IMG/VR virus record: IMGVR_UViG_3300017991_000004
Location: 1-64,000 of that record
From: a virus
Reading direction: 5' to 3' (one strand)
DNA length: 64,000 bases
Shown here: piece by piece, positions 5,539 through 63,555 of the stretch
Layout: the number at the start of each line of letters is the position of its first letter
How positions within the stretch are numbered: position 1 is the first letter of the stretch
Made by a program: the position numbers and the translations under genes
Notes under the pieces: model-generated
What the model was told of the DNA's origin: nothing
Databases searched by the model: none
Seen by the model: the letters and a program-made list of their open reading frames with translations, nothing else

Positions 5539-5556
5539 TCTGCTGGTACCAGCAGA
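5539..5556. repeat. 18-bp perfect palindrome TCTGCTGGTACCAGCAGA (copy 1)
   Basis: Exact copy, intergenic, tandem with copy 2 (6-bp TAAAAG spacer). Confidence 0.95.
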
Positions 5557-5562
5557 TAAAAG

Positions 5563-5580
5563 TCTGCTGGTACCAGCAGA
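5563..5580. repeat. 18-bp palindrome (copy 2)
   Basis: Exact copy abutting the TAG of the spike gene. Confidence 0.95.
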
Positions 5581-6465
5581 CTATTTTAACTTAGTTACCG
5601 TCGAAAGTTCAGTACCAGGCATCAAGGGCGTACCCGGCGGAACTGCTCCCGCAACCGGACCCCCCGTCGTACCAGAACCGGCAGCAGCCGCCCAGACATA
5701 TGGGTGTCCGTGGTTCAACCAGGTCTGGGAGAAAGTGGTGCCTAACACTGCTGCCTCTGTCGCACCTAATCCAATCTCCATAAGCGCCGCAGTTAGTATC
5801 GCCTTGGCGGTTCCGCTTACTGTAGCCTCCCCCGAGGCTTCGTTTATTTCCACCTTCTGACCTGTCGGTGATTCCATCGAAGCTGTCTGTGCAACCTCAC
5901 TCAAGTTCAGCTTAAACCCCGTAGGAGTCTCCAGCAAAACCTGCTGTAGCGTTTCGTTCAGAATCAGCTTGTAAGGTTGTCCAGGTCCCGAATCAGAAAC
6001 GACCTCTACCTTCTTCTGAGTGAGGTCCATAACAATTTGAGTCAGGCTCGGCTGCGGCATCTTCAGGGTGATGGTCTTCAGTTGCTCGTTGATAACAATG
6101 CCGTAACCTCCCGGCGTAATCCACATCCAGCCTTTAGGCTCTAACCCCTGCTTGGCTGCGGTGAACTCCGCTGGAACTCCTGGCGGCGTAGTCCGGTGCC
6201 CTCCCCCTATCCACATGGGATAGTCCTTGTCACCGTGCTTGAAAATCACATTGACGATAGACTGCACCGGCGGCACGCCAATCAAACCGCACTGAAATCC
6301 TGCAAACATAAAGTTCGGCCAAGCCCAAGGCAACTGAAGGTCAGGAGTATCAGTTGCCTCCCCGTGGATGTCGTAAATGCGAATACGAACTGCGCCGGGC
6401 GGCTCAGTGGCCGGCGCTTTCGTATCTACTACGATACCATCCCAAAAACCTGGATAGATTTTCAT
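5581..6465 (-). CDS. Baseplate spike / gp5-like (phage baseplate V OB-fold)
   Basis: GIVVD...VRIRIYDIHG...LPWAWP...VPPVQSIVNVIFKHGDKDYPMWIGG; C-terminal HGH motif; start taken at MKIYPG. Confidence 0.8.
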   Translation of the reverse strand: MKIYPGFWDGIVVDTKAPATEPPGAVRIRIYDIHGEATDTPDLQLPWAWPNFMFAGFQCGLIGVPPVQSIVNVIFKHGDKDYPMWIGGGHRTTPPGVPAEFTAAKQGLEPKGWMWITPGGYGIVINEQLKTITLKMPQPSLTQIVMDLTQKKVEVVSDSGPGQPYKLILNETLQQVLLETPTGFKLNLSEVAQTASMESPTGQKVEINEASGEATVSGTAKAILTAALMEIGLGATEAAVLGTTFSQTWLNHGHPYVWAAAAGSGTTGGPVAGAVPPGTPLMPGTELSTVTKLK

Positions 6466-6466
6466 G

Positions 6467-7660
6467 TCAGCTTCCAAGGGGCACCGCCGCTACTTTCGTG
6501 GGTGAAAAGTTGCCTGCCCCTGCTCGATAAGTATCAGAGCCCATTGACATCGACACAGGCGCACCCGTAGCCGGTTGCGGCCCGGCGTAAGATTCTTGCC
6601 GGTAACCCACTACAGTTGTCACAATCCGCTCTGGCGAATACGACAACTGATACTCGTAAACCGCATAGCGGCCTTCTGTAAATGCCCCCGCGCCATCTGC
6701 ATCCTTCGCGGAAATCTCTACCATGTCGCGCAACTGGATGGTTAAGTCGTTCAACACCCGCATCGCCATCCCGTAATAGCGCGGCGTGTGCTTCGCCTGC
6801 TCCCGCAGGGCAACCGCGCGAAGGGTATTGAGGTTACCAGTGCCGCATACTACTACTTTCTTTTGGCTCGCAATCGCTTGCGGTAGCTTGTCAGCCAATG
6901 CAGCGTTCGGAGCAGTTATCGGACTTGCGAGGTAGAACGCAGGCAACCCCGTAGCGCGGTTGAATCCTCGAGCCTCCACTACTATCCCTCGCCGTGCAAC
7001 CTGGCCCCCGTAATACCGAAAGCGCACTCGAAAGACCCGGTCGTCGTCTTCTGTGAGGTCGTACTGCCGCACAGAAGGTGCTGCGAAATTAATGGGTTTA
7101 ATAGTCAACTTTCGCTTTTCAATATTTAGATAGGCATCCCCTCGATTGTTCTGTGAAGGCACATAATCCGACATCAGTTCTTGAAGGAAATTCCAATCCG
7201 TTTGATTGGCCTGCCACCAGTTGTCCAAAATAGACGTTGTCTGAATGTCCGGCACCAACTGGTACAGAGCGGCAATCTGCTTAACAACCGAGCTGGCCGT
7301 CGTCTGGTAAAACGCTCGCCGCTTGTCTTGCAGCATCATGTTCAATTCAATCCCACCGCCTTCTATGCGCCCTTTCATGTAAGTTCCGCGCAGGTCGCCG
7401 TCAGACAGGTCTACAACCAAACTGAGCCAGCCTGTGTCAGAGATATTGCCGTCCTTTTGTCCAGTTACTTTGACTTGGAACTGAAGGCCGTTTCCAATCA
7501 TGAAGTTCTTCCAGAAGTCCCACTGCGACGTATCAAAATACAGTCGCCAGCGCGTATGCCCGCGCAGAAGGGAGTTCTTGTAGACGAACCTCCTAACAAA
7601 GGGAGTGAGGTCCTCAATTCCCTTTTCCGTCAGCAACAGTAATTGTCCGCTACCCGCCAC
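6467..7660 (-). CDS. Baseplate hub protein (gp27 / late control D-like)
   Basis: ASSVVKQIA...Q.NQTDWNFLQEL motif typical of the gpD/VgrG hub; GTG start at 7660 with AAGGA RBS (ORF track extends to 7708). Confidence 0.75.
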   Translation of the reverse strand: MAGSGQLLLLTEKGIEDLTPFVRRFVYKNSLLRGHTRWRLYFDTSQWDFWKNFMIGNGLQFQVKVTGQKDGNISDTGWLSLVVDLSDGDLRGTYMKGRIEGGGIELNMMLQDKRRAFYQTTASSVVKQIAALYQLVPDIQTTSILDNWWQANQTDWNFLQELMSDYVPSQNNRGDAYLNIEKRKLTIKPINFAAPSVRQYDLTEDDDRVFRVRFRYYGGQVARRGIVVEARGFNRATGLPAFYLASPITAPNAALADKLPQAIASQKKVVVCGTGNLNTLRAVALREQAKHTPRYYGMAMRVLNDLTIQLRDMVEISAKDADGAGAFTEGRYAVYEYQLSYSPERIVTTVVGYRQESYAGPQPATGAPVSMSMGSDTYRAGAGNFSPTKVAAVPLGS

Positions 7661-7982
7661 CTGTCGTTCCTTGTAAGGCTTGGTAAATGCGAGCCAGCTT
7701 GGGAACAATTAGGACCATCCCCGGCACTACATCACGGGGAACATAGTCAATCTTGTTCGCGATAATCAGCGCACCAGTCAATTCCCGCGTACCGTATTGC
7801 TCAAAGGATATGAGGTCCAAGCGTCCGCGGTCGCGCTCTGACACTCGTACCTTTTTCTCGTCGCCATCGAGGATAATCTCCGGGGGCTTCCACAGCCCAA
7901 AGAATACCTTGCCCTTGCTCTGAAGGAGCTTGGTTTCCTTGTAAAAGGAATTGAACGGTAATTCGAGTTCAAAGTCAGCCAT
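7650..7982 (-). CDS. Baseplate wedge gp53 / tail-X LysM-like protein
   Basis: RLDLISFEQYG...IIANKI...PGMVLIVP pattern. Confidence 0.7.
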   Translation of the reverse strand: MADFELELPFNSFYKETKLLQSKGKVFFGLWKPPEIILDGDEKKVRVSERDRGRLDLISFEQYGTRELTGALIIANKIDYVPRDVVPGMVLIVPKLARIYQALQGTTGGG

Positions 7983-11952: not shown

Positions 11953-11970
11953 TCTGCGGGTACCAGCAGA
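11953..11970. repeat. 18-bp palindrome, 1 mismatch (TCTGCGGGTACCAGCAGA)
   Basis: Abuts the sheath stop codon, upstream of the tube RBS. Confidence 0.85.
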
Positions 11971-16338: not shown

Positions 16339-16356
16339 TCTGCTGGTACCAGCAGA
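16339..16356. repeat. 18-bp palindrome
   Basis: Exact copy, intergenic, flanked by TAAAAG on both sides. Confidence 0.95.
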
Positions 16357-16362: not shown

Positions 16363-16527
16363 TTACTCCTGTAGTTGCGCCAACTGGGCCTGGAGTCGGC
16401 TAATCCGCGCCTGAATGTCAGTCGCGATTTCCTCGAAGTCATCACCCAAAGAAACGGCCTTGTCATGAAGGACCATCATCTGTAGAAGACGAGCCTGCAC
16501 GACTTTGATTCTCGGATTTTGAGCCAT
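16363..16527 (-). CDS. Small coiled-coil hypothetical protein (54 aa, MAQNPRIKVVQ...)
   Basis: GGAGGA RBS; ORF fills the gap between neighbours; below the ORF-track cutoff. Confidence 0.6.
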   Translation of the reverse strand: MAQNPRIKVVQARLLQMMVLHDKAVSLGDDFEEIATDIQARISRLQAQLAQLQE

Positions 16528-19995: not shown

Positions 19996-20013
19996 TCTGC
20001 TGGTACCAGCAGA
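19996..20013. repeat. 18-bp palindrome
   Basis: Exact copy, 6 nt after the stop of 20020..21435. Confidence 0.95.
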
Positions 20014-27708: not shown

Positions 27709-28072
27709 CTTCCTGTTTCTCCAGGATGAACTTGACCAGAGCCTTCTTGTCGCCCTTCCCATTCGGTCCCGCAATCGCTTGCAGTTCCTTCTTGGTCAAA
27801 GCCTCGAGGTGCGACTGCGTGTACCTGGGTGGGGCTTTTTCTTCGCTCTCCAATCTGCTGGTACCAGCAGATGAAGACTCGCCCTCTTGGGGCGTTTCGG
27901 TAGGAGCAGGTCCCGAAGAAACGGGCTGCTCCTTCCGAATGAGACCTGTGCCCAGATACTGCTCGTAGTGGGAATCGTGGAGACGCTGTCCCGCGCGAAG
28001 CGTCACCATACCGCCGTTTTTACCGGGCAGCACACACTCGCGGAGGACTAGGTAGGTGGTTTGTTCGTCCAC
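27695..28072 (-). CDS. Hypothetical protein with C-terminal Rho-N/HeH-like motif
   Basis: LEALTKKELQAIA...KKALVKFILE; contains an in-frame palindrome (SAGTSR). Confidence 0.6.
   Translation of the reverse strand: MDEQTTYLVLRECVLPGKNGGMVTLRAGQRLHDSHYEQYLGTGLIRKEQPVSSGPAPTETPQEGESSSAGTSRLESEEKAPPRYTQSHLEALTKKELQAIAGPNGKGDKKALVKFILEKQEDANA
27854..27871. repeat. 18-bp palindrome (intragenic, encodes SAGTSR)
   Basis: Exact copy in the linker of 27695..28072. Confidence 0.95.
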
Positions 28073-36253: not shown

Positions 36254-39200
36254 CTAAATGAGCCGATGGACGACTGCCTGGATTTGCACGGGGGTCAGCT
36301 CTGGGCACTCGTCCCTCACAACCCGTGCGATTGTACCATACGGCTCTGCACTCTGGAAGAGTCCTTCAATGAGTCGGATAGCTTCCTCGTTCTCCTTCAG
36401 GCTGGCTACAGCGGTTTCGATGACGCTCTCCGCAGGGGCGGGAGCAGGCTGCGGCGCTGCCTGGGGCTCACCTTCGGGGGCAGGCGCGGGGGCCGGTTCC
36501 GCTGGCGCGGGAGCGGGCTGAGGTGCCGGAGTCCCTTCCGGCGGCGGTTCCTCTGAGGGCGCACCACCCTCCGGCTCCTCGCCCTTCGGAATTTCGCTCT
36601 TGGCGTCGGGGAACTCGGCCAGGAAGACGTCGTGCGCCTTGTTGAGTTCGGTAATCTTCTTGGTGAGTTCCTGCACCGTCTTTTCGATGTCCATCTTGCC
36701 CGTGAGCTTCTGGACCGCGCCCTGCGTCTTCTTCCCGATGTTTGCGCCTTGCAGCATGGCGACCGCCTTCAGCATGTTTGCCTGAGCGTCCACCATAATC
36801 TGCCGGATTTGCTTCAGGTTGGTGTAGGCGTTGGTGAAACTCTGGTTCACCGACTGCACTACATCCGCGTTCTCGTCGTCTGCCCCGATTTGCTCAGAGA
36901 TGGAGCGGCTCGGGTCGTAGCCGAAGGCTACGCGGCTCTGGATGATGTGGCCGCCGTTGTCCTCGGTGACCTTCACGGCGAAGGTTCGCGCGGTGTCGTC
37001 CTTCGGGTAGAGGTAGAGGGAAGTTGTCTCCTCGAACTCTCCGACCGACATCTGTTTCTTGAGTTCGGTCAGCGCCGTCTTGTACGCCTTGCGGTTCGGG
37101 AAATAGGCGACCATCAGCGCCGAATCGGACGCGACCTTCGACTCGGGGAGGTCGGTGAGTCGCTTGGACTCCTTCCTGCACCGCAAGCGATTGCGAGCCG
37201 CATCCGTGATGGACATCTTGCCCTCCTGCACGGCGCGGAGGCAAGCGGCAAGTGACGCCTCCTCTCCGAAGACCAGCACGTCCTTCGCCGGAACGGTGTG
37301 CAGGATGTTCTTGAACTCGATGACGGCGTCTTCCTTCACCCGGTCCACGATGCGGATTTCGGTCTTTTCGGGGATGTCATCTGCCGGTACCAGCAGTTCA
37401 CCAATGAGGGGCTGGAACTTTTGCACCTGGTCCTCACCTCTGTCCTTCGACGGGGATTCCCGGCTTTCACCGACGTACCAGGCGTCATCGCTCGGGTCCC
37501 GCATCCGCATCACGGCATCCTTGAAATCCCTGCCTGTGCCGGAACGGTCACGGTATTGTCCCATGCCCTTGACCAGTACGGGAATCGCAGCCATCACGTC
37601 GTCGGTGTTGAAGTCCGTTCTTCCGTCGATTTCGGCCTGTGCGTAGGCGGCATCCGTCAACGCATCGCCCATGTGACGCCCGCGAGTGCTGTCGAGGTAG
37701 GTTTGGATTTCCTCGCTGGTCGCCTTGGGCATCACCATCGAGTATGCGACAAACATCGCGTCCCAAATTTTCTGCCGGTCACGCTTGGACCGAGCGAGAG
37801 AACGAAGACTCCCGTCGAACCCGTAAGTCGGGTTGGCGGTTGAGATGGGCCGCGCCATCTCCTCGATGGATTCGCCCGTGGACTGCTCCGTGATACTTTC
37901 ATGCACGAAGGCGTAGCCTTCCTCACTTAACCACAAGAACAAGTCCTGCTTCGCAGACGGCGCTACCTCAAGGTAGCCGAGATTCCTCGACATCATCCCC
38001 GACCCGACAAAGGTGATGCCCATATCGTCCTGAATAAAATCTCGGAGAGCGGCAATGTTCTTACCTTTCAGTTGAACGTAGAACTTCACCGCCTTCGCTT
38101 CCTCGATGGACTCACCGGTAGGCTGCTCTTGCCCCTTCGGTTGCTCGGCGGGGGCGGCGGGAGGTGCCTGCGAGGGAGCCGGCTCGGGCGGGGTCTCCTC
38201 GCCCTTGGGTTCGGCTGCCTTCGGCGCTTCCTCGGGACCGGTCTCTTCGCCGCCCTCTTCCTCCTTCGCGCCCTGCTCCAGTTGCGCGGCGACCTGGTGG
38301 AGCAGTTTGCCCAGCATCATCTTGAGTTGAGGCTTGGGAATCTGCGCGCCGCAACTCGGGCAAGCGAAGGTTTCCTCGCCGCCCTCTTCCTCGCCAGGCA
38401 CTTCCTTCGGCTGCTCCGGCTCCGTCTTATCGCCATCCTGCGAAGGAGTGGGAGCCGCTGCCGGGGGTGGTTCGGTTGCAGGGGCCGCGTTCGGGTCGGC
38501 CGCCTGCGCTCCTGCCGCATCCGTCGAGGGAATCTGCTCGACCAGAGCCGGAGAGCTGGTATAGACAGATTCCTTGACTACGGGTACCTGTATACCTGCC
38601 TTCTTCAGCCACTTCAGGAACTTGTTCAAGTCGCTCCTGTTCTCAATGTCAAAGGTATTGGTGCCGCTACCACCTTCGTAGTCGATACCAGCCTCGTCCG
38701 CGATAACAGAAGCGCGTGTATACTTTGCGTAGTCCTTACCGAAATACTTTTTCAAATCCTTGTCAGAGATGTACACTTCCCACCAATCGCCCGTGCCTTG
38801 GTCTACGATGTGAGAATCATAGCGAGCGCCGAACTTCGCCTCCGATAGGGCGGAAATCTGCTTGACCAGCCCCTTGACCTTCTTGAGGGCGGATTCGCCG
38901 ATTGCCATCGCCTTGAGCAGTTCCTCGACCTCGCCGTATGCCTTGTCATCCTTGCAAGTGACCATGACGTAGCCCTCGTCGTTCAGGTCCACCGACACAA
39001 TGGCATCCGTCTCCTTCTTCTGAAGGATGTTGGTCAGCGATGTAGCGTCCGTCTCTTCGGGGAGTTCCAGCGGGTCGATAAGGACCGTCACGGTACCCTT
39101 CTGCGTCTCGAACTCCTCCAGGGACTTCTTGAAGGCTTCACCGAGAGGCTTGGAACACTTCGGACAGGCCAGGCGCTTGTAGGCTTCGTCGAGGTGCTTG

Positions 39201-42043
39201 GCACGTTTCTTCGCGCCCTCACGGAGCGGAGACTGTTTCGCCTCACGGATAGACCCCGTGATTCCAATACGGGCTAGGGCCTTGTTTAACTTCGGCAAAC
39301 TCTTGGCAGGTACGGCGAAAGTTTCCTCATGTGCGCCAAACAACTCCACAACCTCTACGTCGCGCAAACGCATGGCGTCCAAAAAGTCCCTAATGAGCAA
39401 TTCACGGTCCACTTCCTCGTACTTGTCAGCCTGCCTCAGACCTTTTTGTTTCAGGTACTGAAACATCTTGCGTTGGTCTGGTACAGGAAACTTGATGTGG
39501 TAAATCTTGTTCACAACCTTCGCCTCGCGTAGCGGAGTCTGCTTCGCCTCACGGATGTTGTGCTTGATGCCCGCGAGCGTCATTGTCTTCTTCAGGCGGC
39601 CCATGTCGCTGCCTCCTTGCACGACGAGGACGTCCGAATTGCCGGTGCCTGTCGTGTCCGTATCGTACATTCCCTTGAATCCTGCGGCGTCTGCGAAGTC
39701 TCCGAGCAGGTTATCGAATCCGTCAGCCTCGTAGTCTTCCCACTCGTCTTCGGACATGAACTTGGGCTTGTTGTCCTTCAACCAGGCGAACATCTTCCTG
39801 AAATCGACAGGAGAAAAGGAGACGTAGTATTCGGCGCGAATTAGTTTCGCCTCGTCCACCTTCTCCTTCTTTTCGGTCCGCACCTCGAAGGGCGTGCCGC
39901 AGTTCGGACAGGCGGCGGGGTAGCGCCCGGCGTAAACGGGCACCACCATACCGCATTCCTCACAGCGGTAACGGGCGGTGACGCGGCGACCCATCGCGTT
40001 CATCATACCCTGCGTGATTTTCCGCATCTTTTCCACCAGTCTGCTGGTACCAGCAGATGGGAGAACGGAAGCAGCCTCACGACGGATTATTTTGCCGCCG
40101 TACTGTCTAGCGATAGTTTCAACATCAGCCAAATCTACCGGTTCAGTACCAAATTCTGTAGAGACTACAACGGTAGCCCGGGCCGTTTGCTGGACTACAT
40201 CGCCATAGTCATCAGCGACGTGGTCCGCAAAATCTGCGGCTTCATCAGGCGTCGGAAAACGAATAGTCAGGGCACGCACCTTCTCGGAAAGAGGTTTCAC
40301 CGGCTTACCCCCAACGCTTGCGGCGACCTTACCCCAGCCTGTCTTGGCGCGGATGGCGAAGGCGAGTTCCTTCATGAGACCGTATTCCTTCGACCCTTCC
40401 TTGTATGGCCCTTTCGCCTTGAGGGAGGCGTACCGTTTGCGGAGTTCGCTGGCCGTGCTGTCCTTATACTTGCCCTTCTCCTTGGGGTTCACCGTAGTCT
40501 TGGTGCCCCACTTCTCTTCCAGTGCGGTGAGGTCTTCATCGGACATTACCAGTAGCTCTTCGGGAACCTCCATCGGCTCCTCGGGCTCGGCTTCGCTGCC
40601 CGGCATGTCTTCCGGCTCCTCGTCCTGCTCACGCGGGAAGGGCTTGCCGCTGGCGGGGTCGTTCAGTCCGCCCGCCTGCCAGTAGACGTTACGCGGGTCC
40701 TCCGGGTCAGGACTGAAGCGGGTAGAATCCTTCAGGACCTTGAGTTTGAGGATAGTGGACTCCTCCATGTCGTCCTCTTCGTCATCCTCCTCGTCGTCCT
40801 GCTCGACGGGACGCGGGAAAGGTTTGCCCGTTTTTGGGTCGTTGCTTCGGCCCAATTCCTTGTAGTAGTCAGCAGGCTTGTCCGCACCTTCCTGGGAAAG
40901 ACGCTGACCGCGCGTCATGTAGTGGACGTTGGATTCTTCCTCTTCCTCGTCGTCCGGCATCTCGTCGTCGGGTTCCTCGTCCTGCTCACCATAAGGACGT
41001 CCCATCGGACCTCTGCCTCCACCTCGGGCCATGCCGCGACCGCGACCACCCGACCGAATCCTCATGCCGGGCGTGGCGCAGCCTTCCTCCTCGTCGTCCG
41101 GCTCGTCTCCGTCCATCGGCATGTCACCCGAATCGGTTTCGTCCGGTTCCATTTCGTCATCGGGTTCCTCTTCGTCGTCTTGCTCGGCGGGGCACGGTTC
41201 ACCCGCGGCTTTCCGCTTACCGACGCCAGCCGTTTGCGCCTGGTAGCTGCCCGCATAGGGTCCGGTGCCGTCTCGGCGGCCTCGGGCTCCCTTGCCTTCC
41301 TCCGGTTCCTCTTCGTCGTCAGGTTCTTCCTCGTAGTCCTGCTCCACCCAGTCCGTCTCGCCCTCGTACTCGATGTAGTCGAAGTCGTCCTCGTCGTCGA
41401 ACTCGGTGTCATCCGGCGAAGGAAACATTCCCGCGTCGAACTCGTCGATGTCGGGGAAGAGTTCCTTGAGTTCGTCGCGGAGATGGTGGAAAACGGCGGG
41501 ATAGTTGCTCGCCAGGGCGAACATGAACTCGTCTGCGCGGGTCGTCTCTTCCGACTCGGAGAGCCTGACGCCGTCCCAGTCCCGTTTCATTTCACGCACC
41601 GCCTCCTTGAACTCTCCCTCGTTGCGGAGCGCGAGGAACTTCTCGTTGTCTGCGGAGCCGGCTGCCTCGAACAGCGAAACGAGGTCATACTCGACAGCCG
41701 ACAGGAGCTTCTCCATGCCGCGTTCGTGCAACGTGCCGAAACCTTCCAGCACCTTCGTGAGGTCAAACGGCGAATAGTTCTCGAGGATGGCGGCAAGGTT
41801 GCCTCGCGAATCGTACTTGACACGATTCTCCGTCAGCGGCTTCGTGCTCACCATGAGGTCGCAGAACAGACGCCGCAACTTCTGCGGCAGGGAAGCGAAC
41901 TGGTCCGCTTCCAGAAACCCCTTGGCCTCGATAAGGGCCTTGTAGAAGCCGCCAGTCTTGCCGAGTTCCTTCTCGGAGAGTTCCTGCGGGCTCATAACCA
42001 GGCGAGCGAAAGCCCTGACGAACAGGTTGACGAGGGTGTTCAT
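36254..42043 (-). CDS. Giant modular head-region protein (1929 aa), candidate cleaved internal/core polyprotein
   Basis: GGAGG RBS and promoter; acidic low-complexity tracts, CxxC ribbons, small modules separated by L/I/V-x-E motifs. Confidence 0.7.
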   Translation of the reverse strand: MNTLVNLFVRAFARLVMSPQELSEKELGKTGGFYKALIEAKGFLEADQFASLPQKLRRLFCDLMVSTKPLTENRVKYDSRGNLAAILENYSPFDLTKVLEGFGTLHERGMEKLLSAVEYDLVSLFEAAGSADNEKFLALRNEGEFKEAVREMKRDWDGVRLSESEETTRADEFMFALASNYPAVFHHLRDELKELFPDIDEFDAGMFPSPDDTEFDDEDDFDYIEYEGETDWVEQDYEEEPDDEEEPEEGKGARGRRDGTGPYAGSYQAQTAGVGKRKAAGEPCPAEQDDEEEPDDEMEPDETDSGDMPMDGDEPDDEEEGCATPGMRIRSGGRGRGMARGGGRGPMGRPYGEQDEEPDDEMPDDEEEEESNVHYMTRGQRLSQEGADKPADYYKELGRSNDPKTGKPFPRPVEQDDEEDDEEDDMEESTILKLKVLKDSTRFSPDPEDPRNVYWQAGGLNDPASGKPFPREQDEEPEDMPGSEAEPEEPMEVPEELLVMSDEDLTALEEKWGTKTTVNPKEKGKYKDSTASELRKRYASLKAKGPYKEGSKEYGLMKELAFAIRAKTGWGKVAASVGGKPVKPLSEKVRALTIRFPTPDEAADFADHVADDYGDVVQQTARATVVVSTEFGTEPVDLADVETIARQYGGKIIRREAASVLPSAGTSRLVEKMRKITQGMMNAMGRRVTARYRCEECGMVVPVYAGRYPAACPNCGTPFEVRTEKKEKVDEAKLIRAEYYVSFSPVDFRKMFAWLKDNKPKFMSEDEWEDYEADGFDNLLGDFADAAGFKGMYDTDTTGTGNSDVLVVQGGSDMGRLKKTMTLAGIKHNIREAKQTPLREAKVVNKIYHIKFPVPDQRKMFQYLKQKGLRQADKYEEVDRELLIRDFLDAMRLRDVEVVELFGAHEETFAVPAKSLPKLNKALARIGITGSIREAKQSPLREGAKKRAKHLDEAYKRLACPKCSKPLGEAFKKSLEEFETQKGTVTVLIDPLELPEETDATSLTNILQKKETDAIVSVDLNDEGYVMVTCKDDKAYGEVEELLKAMAIGESALKKVKGLVKQISALSEAKFGARYDSHIVDQGTGDWWEVYISDKDLKKYFGKDYAKYTRASVIADEAGIDYEGGSGTNTFDIENRSDLNKFLKWLKKAGIQVPVVKESVYTSSPALVEQIPSTDAAGAQAADPNAAPATEPPPAAAPTPSQDGDKTEPEQPKEVPGEEEGGEETFACPSCGAQIPKPQLKMMLGKLLHQVAAQLEQGAKEEEGGEETGPEEAPKAAEPKGEETPPEPAPSQAPPAAPAEQPKGQEQPTGESIEEAKAVKFYVQLKGKNIAALRDFIQDDMGITFVGSGMMSRNLGYLEVAPSAKQDLFLWLSEEGYAFVHESITEQSTGESIEEMARPISTANPTYGFDGSLRSLARSKRDRQKIWDAMFVAYSMVMPKATSEEIQTYLDSTRGRHMGDALTDAAYAQAEIDGRTDFNTDDVMAAIPVLVKGMGQYRDRSGTGRDFKDAVMRMRDPSDDAWYVGESRESPSKDRGEDQVQKFQPLIGELLVPADDIPEKTEIRIVDRVKEDAVIEFKNILHTVPAKDVLVFGEEASLAACLRAVQEGKMSITDAARNRLRCRKESKRLTDLPESKVASDSALMVAYFPNRKAYKTALTELKKQMSVGEFEETTSLYLYPKDDTARTFAVKVTEDNGGHIIQSRVAFGYDPSRSISEQIGADDENADVVQSVNQSFTNAYTNLKQIRQIMVDAQANMLKAVAMLQGANIGKKTQGAVQKLTGKMDIEKTVQELTKKITELNKAHDVFLAEFPDAKSEIPKGEEPEGGAPSEEPPPEGTPAPQPAPAPAEPAPAPAPEGEPQAAPQPAPAPAESVIETAVASLKENEEAIRLIEGLFQSAEPYGTIARVVRDECPELTPVQIQAVVHRLI
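37380..37397. repeat. 18-bp palindrome, 2 mismatches (TCTGCCGGTACCAGCAGT; encodes LLVPAD)
   Basis: Degenerate intragenic copy. Confidence 0.75.
40040..40057. repeat. 18-bp palindrome (intragenic, SAGTSR)
   Basis: Exact copy immediately before the LVE motif in the 1929-aa protein. Confidence 0.95.
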
Positions 42044-42914: not shown

Positions 42915-42932
42915 TCTGCTGGTACCAGCAGA
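42915..42932. repeat. 18-bp palindrome
   Basis: Exact copy between the 2118-aa stop and the ParB-like start. Confidence 0.95.
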
Positions 42933-49314: not shown

Positions 49315-49332
49315 TCTGCTGGTACCAACAGA
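49315..49332. repeat. 18-bp palindrome, 1 mismatch (TCTGCTGGTACCAACAGA)
   Basis: In the 5' leader of the 2118-aa gene. Confidence 0.85.
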
Positions 49333-49459: not shown

Positions 49460-49471
49460 GTATGTCTAGAC

Positions 49472-49543: not shown

Positions 49544-50836
49544 CTACAGATGATGTTTTTCGGCTACGGGCATCAGTAGCGCGTAGAAGTTCTTGTCCGG
49601 CGATATGAACTCGACAGGCTCGTTCACCTCGCGGTACTTCTTGCCCCGCACCTTGTGGTACGGAATTTTATACATCATGTCCCCGTGCTTTTTCGGATGC
49701 CTTCCTCGAACAGAACGGGAGCGAAGGAAAATGTCTAATTCAGGCTGTGACAGGATAGGCTCCAACATCTTCCAGTCACACCGCAGGCTGATAGGATAGC
49801 CGTGCCCGTTTATCACAGAGAAGTCAAAAGGCGGCGCAAGGCGGTGCCGCATTCTCAACGTGAAGTGTTTGGGATTCGGAACCTTCCAACGGTTCTCCAA
49901 CCTTATGCCCGCCTCGGTCAAAAGGAACCATAACAGATAGTAGTCGTATTGCGGCGACTTGCCTCCCTTCTCCTTGAGTTCCTTCTTGAAGGCTTTCAAT
50001 TCACCGTTACTGCACGTTTCTAGTCTACCCTCGACCAGCGGCAATCGCTTCGGAATCGCGCCGTCGATGTTGGGTAAGGAGTGAGGAACAACGTCAGACA
50101 GGTAGTAAATCTTTCCGCACTTCACCCTGCACCGGTCCCGCTTGTCGAACAGCAACTGCACCTTCTCCGCTGACAGCTTCGACAGCATCTTTAGGTGGGG
50201 ATACAGGTCGGGGGATATGAGGAAGAATCTTTCCTTTGAGTTGTCCGCGATGGTTCCCTTGTGGCTGAACTTTCTGACGTTCTGGATAACCAGGATGCGC
50301 CCGTTGGTGCCTACGAAGTGGAGACCTTTCGGGCGACCTTTTCCTAGTTTCTTCTGTACCGCGCGGACTCCGATGCAGGTCAAACCTGTGCGTCCTACAT
50401 CTGAACTCTTCGTGGCTAGAAAAGGCTTCACCGTTTTGACTGCCTGGATAAACTCCTCCCTATCGAGGGTGAACGACGCTACCGCCTTGACCTGCTGTTC
50501 GGAAACAACTGCGGCTTCCTCCTCTGCGGGATACTTGAATGTCAGCTCCTCTTCCCCGACAGACAGCAGCCACGACTTCGGGGACTTCGCCCGCGTAACG
50601 CGCCGCACCTTCACCTGTGCGTCGTCTTCGGCCTTTTGGACGATTACTTTGAACTCTTCGATTTCGTCTGCTGGTACCAGCAGTTCCGGCATTGCCTTTA
50701 CCGGCGGCAAACTGAGGTAGTAGCTGCTGGTGATGTGCGGATGGTAGTGAATAATTGTCGCCTTCTTGGTAAAGGCAATAGCCTGTATCGTCTTGGGATT
50801 AACGGCAATCAAAGGTTTGAGGTCTGCGGCTTTCAT
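49544..50836 (-). CDS. DNA polymerase III beta sliding clamp-like protein (divergent)
   Basis: FTLDREEF...R..LTCI...FVGTNGRIL, LPNIDGAIP and C-terminal FYALLMPV resemble DnaN motifs; start at GGAGGAAGTCATG. Confidence 0.6.
   Translation of the reverse strand: MKAADLKPLIAVNPKTIQAIAFTKKATIIHYHPHITSSYYLSLPPVKAMPELLVPADEIEEFKVIVQKAEDDAQVKVRRVTRAKSPKSWLLSVGEEELTFKYPAEEEAAVVSEQQVKAVASFTLDREEFIQAVKTVKPFLATKSSDVGRTGLTCIGVRAVQKKLGKGRPKGLHFVGTNGRILVIQNVRKFSHKGTIADNSKERFFLISPDLYPHLKMLSKLSAEKVQLLFDKRDRCRVKCGKIYYLSDVVPHSLPNIDGAIPKRLPLVEGRLETCSNGELKAFKKELKEKGGKSPQYDYYLLWFLLTEAGIRLENRWKVPNPKHFTLRMRHRLAPPFDFSVINGHGYPISLRCDWKMLEPILSQPELDIFLRSRSVRGRHPKKHGDMMYKIPYHKVRGKKYREVNEPVEFISPDKNFYALLMPVAEKHHL
50667..50684. 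repeat. 18-bp palindrome, 1 terminal mismatch (encodes LLVPAD)
   Basis: Intragenic in the clamp-like gene. Confidence 0.85.
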
Positions 50837-50953
50837 GACTTCCTCCTGCCCGATAACTGTGGAAATAAAGTGGGCCGGGAACCCTTGAGGGGAGGCGCCC
50901 GGCCCTGGCAAAAAAGAAGAACAGGTATGCTCTTGTCTATCGCGTATATTTTA

Positions 50954-55293: not shown

Positions 55294-55311
55294 TCTGCTG
55301 GTACCAGCAGA
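55294..55311. repeat. 18-bp palindrome
   Basis: Exact copy between a stop codon and the next RBS. Confidence 0.95.
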
Positions 55312-56925: not shown

Positions 56926-56943
56926 TCTGCTGGTACCAGCAGA
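56926..56943. repeat. 18-bp palindrome
   Basis: Exact copy between the HNH stop and the next RBS. Confidence 0.95.
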
Positions 56944-56945: not shown

Positions 56946-57350
56946 TCAAACGGCGAAGTAGTTCTTGCACGACCAGTTCGTGCAAGTCAACCACCCGCCG
57001 ACCTCTTCTGCATACGCCATCTGCTCGCCGCACTCAGAACAAGCAGGGAGCGCCGTCGGCTTCCGGGGTTTCCTTTTCCCTTTCACCTTCTTTTCGGCAC
57101 GCTCCTTCAACTTGTGATGCCGCCGATGACACGACCGATGGGTGAGGATAAGGTTTTCGATGATGTTGTTCGAGCGGTCCTCGTCGCAGTGGTGGATGGT
57201 CAGCTTGTCCGGTTCGTGACCTTGCATCAGGTCGTTGACCGTGATGACCTCGTTGCAGAACGGGCACACCGGCTCGAACTTCATAACGAAATAACGCGCC
57301 AAATCCTTCAGGCGCGCAACCTTCGCGTAAGGGGAAACCCTTTTCGCCAT
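56946..57350 (-). CDS. HNH endonuclease
   Basis: CPFC...LTIHHCDEDRSNN..ENL.LTHRSCHRRHH plus C-terminal zinc ribbon. Confidence 0.8.
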   Translation of the reverse strand: MAKRVSPYAKVARLKDLARYFVMKFEPVCPFCNEVITVNDLMQGHEPDKLTIHHCDEDRSNNIIENLILTHRSCHRRHHKLKERAEKKVKGKRKPRKPTALPACSECGEQMAYAEEVGGWLTCTNWSCKNYFAV

Positions 57351-57382
57351 CGGTCGTATCTCCTACAGCAATCGCTTGCGGT

Positions 57383-57896: not shown

Positions 57897-57914
57897 TCTG
57901 CTGGTACCAGCAGA
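57897..57914. repeat. 18-bp palindrome
   Basis: Exact copy in the intergenic control region. Confidence 0.95.
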
Positions 57915-58116
57915 CTGCAAAACCGCCGAAATCGCCTGCGTAGCAGGGGTTACGCGCCCTCTGAGCACAGCCGTTTTCGGCGGCGTAGAGGGGTAACACG
58001 GGGAGGATAGAACGGTCGGGGTTTGTGTACCGGCGGCGCAACGGGGCTATACTAGCCGAAATCGGGGAGTATTCGATACCCGCAGATAGCGGGTATGGAG
58101 CAGATACGGCGAAAGG

Positions 58117-58996: not shown

Positions 58997-59020
58997 TTGA
59001 CCGCAATCGCTTGCGGTCAA
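58997..59020. repeat. Inverted repeat TTGACCGCAA-TCGC-TTGCGGTCAA containing motif GCAATCGCTTGC
   Basis: 10-bp arms; 2 bp from an 18-bp palindrome. Confidence 0.8.
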
Positions 59021-59022: not shown

Positions 59023-59040
59023 TCTGCTGGTACCAGCAGA
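59023..59040. repeat. 18-bp palindrome
   Basis: Exact copy at the divergence point. Confidence 0.95.
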
Positions 59041-59578: not shown

Positions 59579-59788
59579 ATGGCTCAGTTGGTCACAACCG
59601 GCGAACGTCTCACCACCCTGTCGGTCAGTAAGGCCGTCGCAGATACCATCAACAAACGAAGCGGCGCCCTAACTATCGACAATTACCTCCGCAAGCTCCT
59701 CAAGATGCCGTTACGGGAGCGAAAGCGGGGACGGCCTCCTGTCGCTAAAAAGAAAAAGAAGACAGCCCGAAAGAAGGCTAAGAGGTAG
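59579..59788 (+). CDS. Small DNA-binding protein (ribbon-helix-helix-like + AT-hook RGRP + Lys tail)
   Basis: TTLSVSKAVADTI...IDNYLRKLL; KRGRPP. Confidence 0.55.
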   Translation: MAQLVTTGERLTTLSVSKAVADTINKRSGALTIDNYLRKLLKMPLRERKRGRPPVAKKKKKTARKKAKR

Positions 59789-60552: not shown

Positions 60553-60716
60553 GGATTACCATGCACCGACTAAAAAGAGCACTACACGCTTGGTGGACCC
60601 GCCTTTGGTGCGACCATCTAGTATTGCGAAAAGCGTTGCCGCCTTTTAGACATAAATTAAAACCCGGCGAAGAGGAATGGGTATGCACACGATGCGGCGC
60701 TCGGCTGAAAAGATAG

Positions 60717-60734
60717 TCTGCTGGTACCAGCAGA
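60717..60734. repeat. 18-bp palindrome
   Basis: Exact copy, intergenic. Confidence 0.95.
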
Positions 60735-62148: not shown

Positions 62149-62334
62149 GTGAAAATCAAAACCGCAGATGGGCAGTGGTATATTTGCGAGATTCGTGGCG
62201 CATGCTTTATCACATGGGTCTCGAAGAAAGACAAGGAACGCGCCGCAGTCTTTCCGGCAAACAAGGTGGCCGATTGGATACGACTTCTTTCCGACTGGAC
62301 AGGGCTTAGTCTTGATGCCGATGTGATAGATTAG
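62149..62334 (+). CDS. Hypothetical protein
   Basis: GGAG RBS, GTG start. Confidence 0.5.
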   Translation: MKIKTADGQWYICEIRGACFITWVSKKDKERAAVFPANKVADWIRLLSDWTGLSLDADVID

Positions 62335-62346
62335 TGGAAGTGCATC

Positions 62347-62643
62347 ATGAACGACAAAATCCCTCAATACGTGATGGGAAACCCGGAGATGGAAAAGAAG
62401 CGCAACTTCCTCTGGGACAGGCGCGGTCAAATCCTTGACCGACTGAAGCCCATTGTCAAGGAGATTGTCGATAGCGGTATCCTCATGAAGGAGAACGCCG
62501 TCGAGGTGACTTTCAAGGTTGTTGTCAAGGACAGCCTGATTGGTGAGGCCGCTAGCTTTATGAAGTTTCCAGATTGGGACGGTCCAACTCCCAAGAGAAT
62601 CCACGTCGAGGAGGTAACTTTCAAAGTCCGATACTGCTTTTGA
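62347..62643 (+). CDS. Hypothetical protein
   Basis: 98-aa ORF. Confidence 0.55.
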   Translation: MNDKIPQYVMGNPEMEKKRNFLWDRRGQILDRLKPIVKEIVDSGILMKENAVEVTFKVVVKDSLIGEAASFMKFPDWDGPTPKRIHVEEVTFKVRYCF

Positions 62644-62688
62644 AGACACTTTAGCGAAACAGCAACCCGCAGCGCGGGAGGAGGAAGC

Positions 62689-63528
62689 ATGAGCACGGAT
62701 TATAGAGACGAGATGTATCAGAAAGCAATCGACACATGGAAAGAACGACACGGCTCCTTAGTGCGGACCCTTCGGCGCGCCAAAGAGGAACGCGCTGCCC
62801 TGGAGGCCGAGGTCGCCGCGCTGAAGATGGCCGTTGACGAAGCCAACGATTGGACAGAACTTGCCAAGGCCGAGCGCGACCGCGCCGTAGAAAGCTATCA
62901 TGCCGAAGCGGAGGAAGCAGACAGGCTTCGGGAAGGGCTTGCCGCACTGAAGGAGCATGAACGACAGACGCACGAAACGCTCGGGACAATTCTCGGCACC
63001 GACGACAGCCTGGAACAGAAGGCGAAGGCCCTCAAGGCCGAGCGCGACCGCTTGCGGGACTGGAAAGAATCGGCTATGGCCCTGGAAGCAACTTGGGACA
63101 TCCAAGCGGTGGGCAAGGCTCTTGGTGTGCCGTTGGGCGAGCCAATCCACCCTGCCGTCCTGCCGGGAATCATTCGCCTCCGCGAGGCCCTGGAGGAGAT
63201 AGATAAGCACAATCCACCGGGGCGGCACTCTTGCTTATCCCCGGCGATGTGCCACTGCCCCGGATGTATCGCCCGCCGCGCCCTGGCCGGGGAGGGGGTC
63301 GAAACGCGATTCAACAAGCGGAACCCCAAAATAGAGAAGCCCGACCTCGACCCCATCGACGTTGACTCGCTTCCTGAGGTAGACGAGCCCCGCGAGGCAA
63401 AGAAGCCCAAAATCAACCGTCCCATATTTCGATGTAATGAGTGCTTTTCAACATACGGGACAAATCCAGAATGTGAGAACTGTAGGCGGGCCAAGCACAA
63501 GCCCCACGAAACTGGCTCAAAACAGTAA
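62689..63528 (+). CDS. Coiled-coil hypothetical protein with Cys motifs
   Basis: GGAGGAGG RBS; LRE-type coiled coil, IARRAL, CNEC..CENC. Confidence 0.65.
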   Translation: MSTDYRDEMYQKAIDTWKERHGSLVRTLRRAKEERAALEAEVAALKMAVDEANDWTELAKAERDRAVESYHAEAEEADRLREGLAALKEHERQTHETLGTILGTDDSLEQKAKALKAERDRLRDWKESAMALEATWDIQAVGKALGVPLGEPIHPAVLPGIIRLREALEEIDKHNPPGRHSCLSPAMCHCPGCIARRALAGEGVETRFNKRNPKIEKPDLDPIDVDSLPEVDEPREAKKPKINRPIFRCNECFSTYGTNPECENCRRAKHKPHETGSKQ

Positions 63529-63537
63529 CTACCGTTA

Positions 63538-63555
63538 TCTGCTGGTACCAGCAGA
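63538..63555. repeat. 18-bp palindrome
   Basis: Exact copy between a stop and the next start; its end runs into the GAGGAG RBS. Confidence 0.95.

Follow-up and report, generated by a model that had tools for sequence, protein, structure and literature searches.

A large uncultured tailed phage and its relatives carry dozens of identical 18-base palindromes, both between and inside genes. In the window, which is the whole 64-kb stretch of DNA analysed here, the palindrome TCTGCTGGTACCAGCAGA occurs in 14 exact and 4 near copies, against 0.02 expected by chance. All 18 sites of a preliminary description were found again at the same coordinates. The near copies have one mismatch (11953, 49315 and 50667) or two (37380), and allowing up to three mismatches yields no additional site in the window. 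Full dyad symmetry, including the centre, is present in 14 of the 18 copies. The sites and their surroundings are as follows.

5539..5556, exact copy, the proximal one of a doublet with a 6-nt spacer; 12 nt upstream of ATG 5526
5134-5526 (-), baseplate-wedge-like gene downstream of the 5539 copy; GGAG 1 nt past the palindrome
5563..5580, exact copy, the distal one of the doublet; immediately next to the TAG that ends gene 5581-6477 (-)
11953..11970, 1-mismatch copy; immediately next to the TAG that ends the tail sheath gene 11971-15579 (-), with the next gene's ATG at 11929, 23 nt downstream
16339..16356, exact copy; flanked by the stop of 16363-16527 (-) and ATG 16329 of 15592-16329 (-)
19996..20013, exact copy; 6 nt past the stop of 20020-21435 (-), 10 nt before the start of 18987-19985 (-)
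27854..27871, exact in-gene copy; open frame 27695-28072 (-), variable linker, read SAGTSR
32281..32298, exact in-gene copy; 1078-aa prohead-protease fusion gene 30118-33354 (-), between modules, read SAGTSR
37380..37397, 2-mismatch in-gene copy; 1929-aa gene 36254-42043 (-), read LLVPAD
40040..40057, exact in-gene copy; the same 1929-aa gene 36254-42043 (-), read SAGTSR
42915..42932, exact copy; 4 nt past the stop of the 2118-aa gene 42937-49293 (-), 32 nt before ATG 42882 of a ParB-N gene
49315..49332, 1-mismatch copy; 21 nt upstream of ATG 49293 of the 2118-aa gene, with a strong terminator (49504-49480) and a promoter-like site (49459-49432) upstream
50667..50684, 1-mismatch in-gene copy; gene 49544-50911 (-), read LLVPAD
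55294..55311, exact copy; 2 nt past the stop of 55314-55895 (-), 16 nt before GTG 55277
56926..56943, exact copy; 2 nt past the stop of the HNH gene 56946-57350 (-), 15 nt before ATG 56910
57897..57914, exact non-coding copy; end of a structured 200-nt stretch, terminator-like, T-rich run next on the minus strand
59023..59040, exact copy; between divergent gene blocks, with a second dyad motif (59000-59017) at 5 nt
60717..60734, exact copy; immediately next to the TAG that ends 60561-60716 (+), with ATG 60806 following after 71 nt
63538..63555, exact copy; 9 nt past the stop of 62689-63528 (+), GGAG directly after, ATG 10 nt downstream

Placement of the copies

The copies lie at a density of about one site per 3.5 kb. 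Their gaps are more regular than random (CV 0.56, P = 0.011), the longest of them being 7.9 kb (P = 0.06). Repeats of this kind could be library adapters, assembly junctions or a product of chance. No supporting point for such an artefact was found, and in 100 shuffles of the window the maximum was a single copy, so that none attained 18. Several independent assemblies share the 18-mer at the same junctions, and the reading frame stays open through the in-gene copies. Recurrence in many independent assemblies, with the in-gene copies in frame, refutes the earlier worry about adapters and assembly junctions, and the chance of an artefact is negligible. The 18-mer occurs in bacterial genomes at chance level only and is conserved in the relatives, which supports its description as a phage-specific dispersed cis-element.

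Twelve copies are intergenic and six lie in genes. The split had been given as 13 and 5, and is corrected because the 27854 copy lies in a conserved open frame. A stop codon within about 10 nt and a ribosome-binding site just after the palindrome had also been described. This is true of the gene-junction copies, where the stop lies 0-9 nt upstream and the Shine-Dalgarno sequence 0-6 nt downstream; the exception to the stop distance is the second member of the doublet. By automated classification, 25 of 53 non-redundant sites in the phage family are junctions of the order stop, palindrome, Shine-Dalgarno, start, and 9 further sites touch a stop or a start. Copies without an mRNA junction include the six in genes, the one between divergent gene blocks, and two in the related contig L058. 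The latter are found where convergent genes are separated by 1.1 kb of iteron-like non-coding DNA, past a predicted terminator.

The bases next to the palindrome also show a preference. A purine is found at -1 in 18/18 window sites and a pyrimidine at +1 in 15/18, and across the family a purine is found at -1 in 85 of 106 half-sites, a symmetric preference. An extension of the symmetry into the flanks had been described, but no base pairing is added there: positions -1 and +1 are Watson-Crick complementary in 21 of the 53 non-redundant sites (40%), against 38.5% predicted from single-position frequencies alone.

Conservation at orthologous junctions

The exact 18-mer is found at the same junctions in related contigs whose G+C content ranges from 41 to 68% and whose proteins are 55-80% identical. 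The sequences flanking it are only 64-75% identical, and all 18 positions of the palindrome are conserved across lineages. Identity by neutral descent appears unlikely, since 0.7^18 is about 0.002 by our own arithmetic. The preliminary description had called for mapping the motif in relatives and aligning orthologues with and without the site. Where both flanks are homologous, 12 of 13 locus-by-junction comparisons are syntenic and have a copy with at most one mismatch.

The doublet locus has an orthologous single copy in L008, L012, L036, L045 and L060. Orthologous copies of the 11953 site occur in L012 (one mismatch) and L162 (centre variant), and that of the 57897 site in L044; the L044 interval corresponding to the 56926 site has no copy. 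The ParB-N gene of L023 is likewise preceded by a copy, and the prohead-protease fusion gene also carries copies in L013 and L156.

Judged from the reading frames, the nucleotides and not the peptide are under selection. The orthologous in-gene copy at 27854 is read in different frames, as SAGTSR in the window and LLVPAE in L001; it reads SAGTSR in L004 and SADTSR in L156. In L013 (65% G+C), an in-gene copy keeps the same codons as the window.

A further constraint is seen in the L156/L162 lineage, where 7/7 copies carry exactly one central transition. On the sense strand the centre is ATAC in five copies, GTAT in two, and GTAC or ATAT in none; GGTACC is absent from both contigs. As double-stranded DNA the two forms are one site reversed. 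As RNA they would be two distinct loops.

Hairpins, promoters and recombination as possible alternatives

The palindrome can also be read as an RNA element between cistrons, with a 7-bp stem and a GUAC loop, which would control message stability, processing or translation for the cistrons on either side. Such an element would act via a sequence-specific RNA-binding or RNA-cleaving phage protein, or as a stabiliser or weak terminator. Most copies lie exactly between a stop and a Shine-Dalgarno sequence, as an mRNA element would. A REP-like mRNA hairpin was one of three options offered earlier, and the hairpin is indeed predicted at 6/6 folded junctions; the 5539/5563 doublet folds at -42.9 kcal/mol (z = -8.8). 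Some variants preserve the stem. The copy at 3384 in L004 has the compensatory changes C5T and G14A (C5U and G14A in RNA) plus a loop change, and that at 3517 in L018 has a new loop with a 6-bp stem kept. A sense-strand G.U pair is retained in 3/3 oriented single stem transitions (window 37380 and 49315; L030 2209), and none of the oriented stem transitions is G.U-compatible solely on the antisense strand. The 57897 copy and a few others precede T-runs and score as terminator-like.

What this option lacks is covariation of the stem, which argues against a constraint on pairing only: a hairpin selected for pairing would be expected to covary, but all 18 positions are fixed from 41 to 68% G+C. 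Five stem variants are disruptive transversions. The symmetric preference at -1/+1 involves no pairing, and relative to transcription the centre variant faces one way in five copies and the other way in two. Conserved in-gene copies are located far from start codons, one of them in different frames, and the DNA around some copies is probably not transcribed. Where the phage has clear terminators (49504-49480 and 28604-28570), these are GC-rich hairpins of the ordinary kind, followed by T-runs. The palindrome matches no Rfam family, and we know of no candidate RNA-binding protein for the hairpin. An RNA role is thus unlikely, although of all the alternatives to a DNA site it deserves the most weight.

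Hairpins can also form in single-stranded or extruded DNA. The N4 virion polymerase, for instance, uses promoters in hairpin form. The palindrome might thus be a promoter for an unrecognised phage RNA polymerase, or a priming or replication signal. The palindromes at 7086 in L156 and at 3384 in L004 have a canonical terminator some 20 nt upstream and a Shine-Dalgarno sequence within a few nucleotides after them, leaving no room for a sigma-70 promoter. The stem-preserving variants count here as well, and among the head genes are two that encode giant proteins without annotation (2118 and 1929 aa). Against this, no scanned window protein has an RNA polymerase signature, and sigma-70-like promoters are present, such as TTGACG-16-TAGAAT at 49459-49432. 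A perfect palindrome carries no direction, and the in-gene copies would make internal promoters. A role of this kind is very improbable.

Repeats at gene junctions may instead mark the boundaries of mobile cassettes, either mediating or spreading by the exchange of genes and modules. PeSL cassettes of T4-type phages and REP/REPIN elements are systems to which such boundaries can be likened. One clean case is found in L156, where two palindromes enclose an 85-aa cassette and L013 has a single palindrome; both outer sides are orthologous. Synteny with relatives also stops at the 16339 junction: in L004, L056 and L162, homology to the window is confined to one side and ends precisely at the palindrome. 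At this junction L162 has a doublet and L004 a variant with a compensatory pair. Doublets vary in both directions, since the window has two copies at 5539/5563 where relatives have one, and L162 has two where the window has one. Copy positions differ among lineages (L156 7086, L030, L044), and in-gene copies are hosted at module boundaries.

The option of a recombination site, also raised earlier, is therefore borne out at one cassette and one synteny break. It is not the general rule, because 12 of the 13 comparisons are syntenic on both sides with the copy kept. Long-term purifying selection on 18 bases at orthologous positions is unexpected for a selfish or recombinogenic repeat. No transposase or RAYT-like gene was found in a partial survey of about 45 window ORFs, and no host genome exceeds chance for the 18-mer. 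As the basis of the whole pattern, cassette exchange is improbable, though slightly less so than a hairpin promoter; recombination at the copies is seen as a consequence.

REP/REPIN elements with their RAYT (TnpAREP) share several features with the phage palindrome, being short junction palindromes, sometimes doublets, that are hairpin-capable and can mark rearrangements. As characterised in passages of one account (PMC8266576), however, REPs are imperfect, host-chromosomal, highly numerous and linked to RAYT, whereas the phage 18-mer stays at chance level in bacterial genomes and no RAYT was seen among the scanned ORFs.

A proposed DNA site and its candidate protein

Among the three options put forward earlier, the evidence most favours a binding site recognised by a dimeric phage protein, given a symmetric palindrome conserved at the nucleotide level. 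The chance that this is its function is judged to be about even. The 18-mer, with its preferred purine before and pyrimidine after, would be a docking site in double-stranded DNA, read symmetrically by a phage-encoded dimeric sequence-specific DNA-binding protein. Selection may then keep about one site per 3.5 kb wherever a compact genome tolerates 18 extra bases. Such places would be the gaps between stop and ribosome-binding site, the flexible linkers of long genes, the divergent control region and the origin-like non-coding region.

Two window proteins had been suggested as partners, and both are weak candidates. The product of 42103-42882 has a ParB N-domain only, with no HTH match, and 59579-59788 is an ORF without a family match. 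A full ParB with an HTH domain is encoded by a relative, outside the window. In that relative, two exact copies of the palindrome are observed 76 bp apart in the 530-nt region upstream of the parB gene.

In this ParB, an N-domain of the CTPase fold is joined to an HTH DNA-binding domain, and the tails are rich in Lys. Its ParB_N domain is matched at E = 2.5e-10. The HTH_ParB match (E = 1e-3) is below the Pfam curated cut-off, with 19.7 bits against 22.6, and the protein aligns with Spo0J (1vz0) across the HTH at E = 3.8e-14. Its predicted model matches the N-domain and DNA-binding domain of ParB, Noc and KorB. Eight orthologues (44-57% identity) retain the GxxR and ENxxR-type residues of the N-domain, as well as R153, R156 and W157 of a putative recognition helix. 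The DNA-binding region is not more conserved than the whole protein (0.69-0.78 against 0.67 overall). In unrelated phages, repeated palindromes are not clearly commoner at ParB_N loci (6/80) than at control loci (3/105).

The family's partner-less ParB is the best, if tentative, candidate for the protein that would read the palindrome, and is given somewhat less credence than the DNA site as such. By analogy with KorB-OB and Noc-NBS, ParB would load at each site and then spread or slide over the adjoining DNA. The phage chromosome might thereby be organised, compacted or silenced. The sites, their conservation, the selection on their nucleotides, the existence of the ParB gene and the two copies upstream of it in a relative are observations, whereas binding by a protein, the choice of ParB and the effect of binding are inferred.

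ParABS. The 16-bp parS is a palindrome of similar size, read by a protein with a ParB N-domain and HTH, and sites lie beside the parB gene. Copies of parS are grouped around the origin or the par operon and function together with ParA. The phage sites, in contrast, are genome-wide and include copies inside genes, and their sequence is unrelated to canonical parS.

Noc. Noc of Bacillus subtilis is a ParB paralogue without a ParA partner, and its many palindromic binding sites (NBS) are dispersed over the chromosome. It is among the best structural matches of the phage ParB, its DNA-binding domain (6y93) giving a target TM of 0.76. Noc serves the host as a regulator of cell division and anchors DNA at the membrane, and the NBS sequence differs from the phage palindrome.

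KorB-OB. The closest published analogues are KorB-OB and the 17-bp repeats of Cluster O mycobacteriophages. The IncP plasmid RK2 has 12 OB sites of 13 bp. The putative phage site is 18 bp and has about three times as many copies. In sequence and model, the phage ParB matches the KorB structures 8qa8 and 8qa9. As set out in parts of one study (PMC11790492), KorB is a ParB-family CTPase clamp that silences distant genes through palindromic sites spread across a mobile genome, some lying well away from promoters. RK2 differs in being a plasmid with a ParA partner, IncC, and the clamp-locking partners KorA and TrbA (PMC11790492, same parts). No counterparts of ParA, KorA or TrbA were seen in a non-systematic look among the phage proteins.

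Stoperators. Stoperators of Cluster A mycobacteriophages resemble the palindrome in that dozens of such short conserved sites occur genome-wide in narrow gaps between genes. In the passages of PMC4351075 that deal with them, they are asymmetric, oriented with transcription and recognised by a single phage protein, a temperate phage's immunity repressor; the phage palindrome is symmetric. No repressor or integrase was found among the scanned window ORFs.

Cluster O repeats. The phages of the Corndog group have more than 30 17-bp dyad repeats per genome, spread genome-wide (PMC4351075). The repeat, TGTTCGG-N3-CCGAACA, has invariant 7-bp inverted arms and a variable 3-bp centre. About one third of the repeats are in coding regions and many are between genes. 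In the passages on the repeats, their orientation obeys no rule with respect to transcription, and most lie away from promoters (PMC4351075). The authors predict a dimeric DNA-binding protein, and the phages encode proteins with ParB-like domains; those passages doubt a role of the ParB-like protein and give the function of the repeats as unknown. Compared with these repeats (PMC4351075, same passages), the palindrome described here has another sequence and a fixed 4-bp centre, and the whole 18-mer is perfectly palindromic. A relative encodes a full ParB with HTH whose gene has two copies upstream, and the palindrome is conserved over lineages that differ widely in G+C.

The palindrome in the window and in related phages

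The perfect 18-bp palindrome TCTGCTGGTACCAGCAGA occupies 18 sites in the 64-kb window when up to three mismatches are allowed. Fourteen copies match exactly, three differ at one position and one at two. Chance predicts 0.02 sites, and none of 100 shuffled sequences reaches 18. The search recovered the same set that a preliminary description had listed, with no extras. The 14 exact copies are perfect palindromes, of a size that fits the dyad sites of 13–18 bp at which ParB-family proteins dock (parS/OB/NBS class).

Twelve copies are non-coding and six of the 18 lie within genes. Nine of the non-coding copies are wedged between genes, with a stop codon 0–9 nt upstream and the next Shine-Dalgarno sequence 0–6 nt downstream. 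The copy at 27854 had been counted as intergenic, but it actually lies within a gene, where it is read as SAGTSR. Some copies need individual mention:

5539 and 5563: doublet; the proximal member is 24 nt from the stop codon
27854, 32281 and 40040: exact copies within genes, in linkers, all read as SAGTSR
37380 and 50667: near-copies within genes, read as LLVPAD
49315: leader copy, preceded by a terminator and a promoter-like site
57897: closes a structured non-coding stretch
59023: between divergent gene blocks

The in-gene copies fall within 28–42 kb, a region of long genes and few junctions. Across the window the copies are spaced more evenly than at random (CV 0.56, P = 0.011).

Judged by its gene content, the source of the window is an uncultured contractile-tailed phage. 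Family scans identified structural genes for a baseplate wedge, tape measure, sheath, collagen-like fibres, a prohead protease fusion and a major head protein. They also found an NAD-dependent ligase, an HNH endonuclease, a ParB N-domain protein and a 2118-aa AAA+ protein. Up to about 58.9 kb the genes lie on the minus strand; from about 59.1 kb they lie on the plus strand. The 40–60 kb portion has no megablast match among cultured phages, and no cultured phage has a major capsid protein more than 28.5% identical to this one. Among the approximately 45 window ORFs scanned there is no ParA, integrase, repressor or RAYT gene. No tRNA was found. Of the sequencing runs listed, a single DNA run matches (share 0.30) and no RNA run does; the contigs of the DNA run are short and shallow and uninformative on the sites.

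The exact 18-mer is present in 13 viral-contig stretches and 49 metagenome stretches. Homology to the window extends to sixteen of these loci (55–80% identity in protein, 64–75% in nucleotides), with G+C contents between 41 and 68%. Relatives align on both flanks of a window site in 13 locus-by-junction comparisons. The doublet at 5539/5563 accounts for five of them (two of the contigs, L008 and L045, overlap), 27854 for three and 11953 for two; 32281, 56926 and 57897 supply one each. A copy with at most one mismatch is present in twelve of the 13, and the sole comparison without one is contig L044 at 56926. At a flank identity of about 70%, descent alone would not be expected to leave all 18 bases unchanged (0.7^18, about 0.002 by our own arithmetic). 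A copy at position 2209 of contig L030 was considered as an orthologue of 49315 and was ruled out by flank comparison.

Pooled counts were made on a family set of 34 loci from L001–L062, together with L156, L162 and the window. Homology to the window holds for 14 of the 34 loci and for L156 and L162; the basis for taking in the other 20 was solely their contig-name prefix, copy number and gene-junction context. Stretches excluded as probably unrelated single matches were L014, L017, L020, L024–L028, L031, L034, L035, L037, L039, L042, L043, L047, L050–L054, L057 and L061. Duplicates (L003, L015, L032, L041, L049) and bacterial single matches (L063–L072) were excluded as well. The 53 non-redundant family sites comprise 25 at junctions, 15 in open frames, nine with stop or start contact only and four others, according to a rough automatic classification in which high G+C yields some spurious frames.

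Across 596 Gb of species-representative genomes from bacteria and archaea, the 18-mer has 10 single matches in unrelated taxa, against about 8.7 expected by our own arithmetic. It serves no host as a repeat of its own. The REP/REPIN-RAYT class was rejected on this chance-level count and on the lack of a RAYT gene among the scanned ORFs. When the 4-nt loop was left free in the 18-mer scan, the matches listed were mostly unrelated. The 18-mer is a real element and no artefact, strongly selected and specific to this phage family.

Recombination or mobility could also give rise to dispersed repeats, and some relatives differ at the sites in ways that point in this direction. Contig L156 carries an 85-aa cassette between two palindromes where contig L013 has a single palindrome, and the outer flanks are orthologous. 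At 16339, on the border of a variable fibre module, homology to the window ends exactly at the palindrome in three relatives. Doublets and a few site positions vary between lineages. On these alignments, the repeats are used as seams. However, because 12 of the 13 comparable junctions are syntenic, seam use would be a by-product and not the reason for keeping the repeats. Recombination or mobility is thus a very unlikely primary cause.

Nucleotides, centre and strand of the palindrome

A linker site upstream of a conserved ELQxxA segment can be compared between relatives. It is read as SAGTSR in the window and in contig L004 and as SADTSR in L156. In contig L001 the same nucleotides are read in another frame, as LLVPAE. 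Around this site the linkers are unalignable and the 18 bases are identical. The palindrome keeps the same codons in L013, which has 65% G+C. Selection acts on the DNA letters of the palindrome.

A variant centre is found in L156 and L162, which belong to one lineage with 50% G+C. Their seven copies each carry exactly one central transition. These include the junctions matching 11953, 16339 (a doublet there) and 27854, and the protease-fusion gene of 32281. On the sense strand, five copies read TCTGCTG-ATAC-CAGCAGA and two have the reverse complement form (GTAT); none has GTAC or ATAT. A scan for the ATAC variant matched only L156 and L162, plus one stray.

GGTACC is absent from both contigs, where composition predicts about 3.2 occurrences apart from the seven palindromes, and it is present at expected levels in other lineages. 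The simplest reading of these sequences is that each copy independently shed its GGTACC core via one tolerated change, in either half. Such parallel loss is most simply read as every site being maintained individually. It would show how a regulatory site can survive being reshaped under restriction pressure. The window itself lacks GATC (232 expected), CTGCAG (15) and GAATTC (6.4), and contigs L012, L001 and L009 lack AGCT and CTAG. Avoidance of such short palindromic words is complete, and the words avoided vary by lineage, which suggests different hosts or restriction systems among closely related phages.

Only one of the six possible classes of single change appears at the centre, and therefore the centre is read. 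The occurrence of five ATAC and two GTAT forms implies that the two orientations are equivalent, as is natural when a symmetric dimer reads double-stranded DNA. Reading by an RNA loop is awkward, because AUAC and GUAU differ as loop sequences. The most likely reading, with about an even chance of being correct, is that a symmetric phage protein docks on the palindrome in double-stranded DNA.

Bases next to the 18-mer show further preferences. A purine precedes the half-site in 85 of 106 half-sites of the family. Positions -1 and +1 are complementary in 21 of 53 sites, and independent preferences predict 38.5%. Flank symmetry therefore reaches beyond the 18-mer and pairing does not. Some copies also occur away from any cistron junction, namely the one at 59023 and two in contig L058, and both observations favour a site on DNA. 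A signal formed by a hairpin extruded from the DNA is extremely unlikely.

Action at the level of mRNA has more in its favour. The transcript of every copy is predicted to fold into a 7-bp stem with a 4-nt loop, and the copies mostly sit exactly between cistrons. Contig L004 has compensatory changes C5T and G14A at its copy at 3384, plus a loop change, and the copy at 3517 of contig L018 has a new loop with a 6-bp stem kept. Sense-strand G.U pairing survives in each of the three oriented single stem transitions (window 37380 and 49315, L030 2209), but the tally of 3 vs 0 (one-sided P = 0.125) is too small to decide. Against this, the variant copies include five stem changes that are disruptive transversions. 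A hairpin that needs only pairing should covary across such divergence, and no covariation is seen. An RNA reading thus calls for a protein that binds RNA sequence-specifically, and there is no candidate for one. Rfam gives no match, and the clear terminators of the phage are ordinary GC-rich hairpins with T-runs. Membership in the intrinsic terminator class was rejected: only the doublet, 57897, 60717 and 32281 (antisense) are terminator-like, and other copies are without a T-run. Overall, it is rather unlikely that the palindrome acts on mRNA.

Other classes of DNA site were considered as well. Promoter scans gave window counts no higher than shuffles and found none upstream of the parB gene of the related contig L262; a promoter picked out by eye there was dropped on the scan criteria. 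No claim of an operator within a promoter is made, owing to these scans. Identity with the stoperators of Cluster A mycobacteriophages was likewise rejected: those are asymmetric, follow the direction of transcription and bind the immunity repressor, whereas the site is a perfect palindrome and the scanned ORFs include no repressor.

Candidate proteins and known systems

The preliminary description had named as a possible binder the ParB-like protein encoded at 42103–42882 on the minus strand. It shows the ParB N-domain only, with no HTH match. Alignments to solved ParB and Noc structures stop at about residue 128–145, and a single-sequence model is unusable (pLDDT 36). Some phage ParBs have nucleotide-binding and dimerisation domains without an obvious DNA-binding domain and activate DNA-modifying enzymes, according to excerpts of one report (PMC13229309). 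Such an enzyme-activator role may fit this gene better and is a candidate for it.

A better candidate is found in L262, which encodes a separate full ParB of 337 aa. It matches Pfam ParB_N with E = 2.5e-10 and HTH_ParB with E = 1e-3, the latter under the Pfam cut-off. Alignment to Thermus Spo0J (1vz0) spans the HTH domain (residues 37–202, E = 3.8e-14). The AlphaFold model (pLDDT 76) matches the N-domain and DNA-binding domain of ParB, Noc and KorB with E = 1e-10 to 1e-8, and reaches a target TM of 0.76 against the Noc DNA-binding domain 6y93. The protein has Lys-rich tails. In the 530 nt upstream of the gene, just past a terminator, there are two exact palindromes 76 bp apart. Two features of the parS/OB/NBS class are thus present in L262: a ParB with a CTPase-fold N-domain and an HTH DNA-binding domain, and a site near parB.

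The full ParB has eight orthologues with 44–57% identity, one of them on a 131.7-kb contig. All eight retain the GxxR and ENxxR-type residues of the N-domain. R153, R156 and W157, in the putative recognition helix, are invariant among them, and the palindrome arms are likewise constant; this may be read as co-conservation only. Conservation of the DNA-binding region does not exceed that of the remaining protein. When viral contigs were queried with two of the orthologues (P0002 and P0009) and a ParB alignment, L262 was the sole locus, and tblastn with ParB gave only distant matches (29–37%) in cultured phages. The window's N-domain protein retrieved 80 loci, all encoding distant ParB_N proteins at most 47% identical. 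Repeated 12-bp palindromes were found in 6 of these 80 loci vs 3 of 105 control loci, a difference that is not clear. This orphan ParB with an HTH domain is a tentative candidate for the reader of the palindrome, its chances being somewhat below even.

A broader mechanism can be proposed. In a large phage without ParA, and with no integrase or repressor among the scanned ORFs, the phage's own ParB-CTPase would coat the whole chromosome from a lattice of loading sites, one every 3–4 kb. The coat would be a form of phage 'chromatin' or a condensate, and would organise, shield or globally switch the genome during infection. The same loading sites would double as seams for swapping genes and protein modules. 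Coating of the whole chromosome from dispersed sites that also serve as swap seams is unlikely. If it is true, the Cluster O repeats described below are probably the same kind of system.

To our knowledge, dispersed dyad repeats in phages have been known since the Cluster O mycobacteriophages, their function was never assigned, and the question has been open since 2015. Their 17-bp dyad repeat comes closest among published cases; excerpts of the report describe 34 copies in Corndog, invariant 7-bp arms, about one third of copies in coding sequence, and no orientation rule (PMC4351075). As far as those excerpts go, the palindrome shares these features, with 18 copies in 64 kb, 6 of 18 in genes and a centre variant in both orientations. 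The present phage family is an unusually clean case. A single perfect 18-mer is kept across 41–68% G+C and in different in-gene frames, its centre was adjusted in parallel as GGTACC was lost, and a bona fide ParB has two copies before its own gene.

Conserved inverted repeats are known from phage phiC31 and dispersed centromeres from N15. The nearest mechanistic models would be, by analogy, ParB-family proteins with dispersed palindromic sites, namely KorB-OB and Noc-NBS. Noc is a ParB-family protein with dispersed palindromic NBS sites. KorB and its OB sites on plasmid RK2 follow the same plan, according to excerpts of PMC11790492. A literature search at the level of the articles themselves found none on a phage ParB with genome-wide dispersed sites. 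If ParB binds the 18-mer, phages would join plasmids and chromosomes in having genome-wide clamp loading of the KorB/Noc type, which would account for a class of phage repeats.

Neighbouring motifs and other features

A second dyad motif, ACCGCAATCGCTTGCGGT, with 7-bp arms and a 4-bp centre, is found exactly at 59000–59017 and with one mismatch at 57365–57382. The exact copy stands 5 nt from the palindrome at 59023. The motif occurs with the palindrome again in contigs L019 (941) and L058 (1275), at distances of 5–22 nt across cases. With up to two mismatches, there are six matches in the window vs 0.24 expected. It may be the site of a putative second regulator.

In L058, two copies of the palindrome lie past a predicted terminator, between convergent genes, in 1.1 kb of iteron-like non-coding DNA. 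This region (600–1700) also holds several short direct repeats and a long inverted repeat, and is a candidate for a putative origin.

Among the 80 ParB_N loci, the best case of a repeated palindrome was in contigs L113 and L116, and was rejected as an operator inside a promoter. The motif, AAACCCGGGTTT, occurs three times in each of these unrelated ParB_N-encoding phage contigs (L113 at 9369, 11993 and 13641; L116 at 14062, 16663 and 18588). Every copy occupies the spacer of a TTGAC...TATAAT-like promoter, so that it looks like a repeated operator-promoter unit. In L262, the gene directly upstream of parB (1624–2205, minus strand) codes for a 193-aa protein that includes an acidic run of about 60 Glu/Asp residues.

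Several genes and non-coding stretches of the window are also unusual:

27695–28072, minus strand: open frame overlapping the conserved gene 26998–27774 by about 80 nt in a different frame
36254–42043, minus strand: giant gene, 1929 aa; sole family match one PHROG of unknown function
42937–49293, minus strand: giant gene, 2118 aa; sole family match an AAA+ core at residues 993–1261
49293–49504, minus strand: terminator, promoter-like site and leader
57915–58116, minus strand: structured non-coding stretch

The two giant genes sit among head genes. The overlap at 27695–28072 could stem from two genes that truly overlap, a misplaced start call or a programmed frameshift. Ahead of the 2118-aa gene, a strong terminator (49504–49480) is followed by TTGACG-16-TAGAAT (49459–49432), a leader of about 90 nt, a near-palindrome and the gene start, and the region looks like the head of a morphogenesis transcription unit. 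The stretch at 57915–58116 is 200 nt of GC-rich non-coding sequence with a predicted fold far more stable than those of shuffles (-89.9 kcal/mol, z = -4.6) and no Rfam or tRNA match. It closes with the palindrome and then a U-rich run, and is a candidate for a putative small structured RNA.
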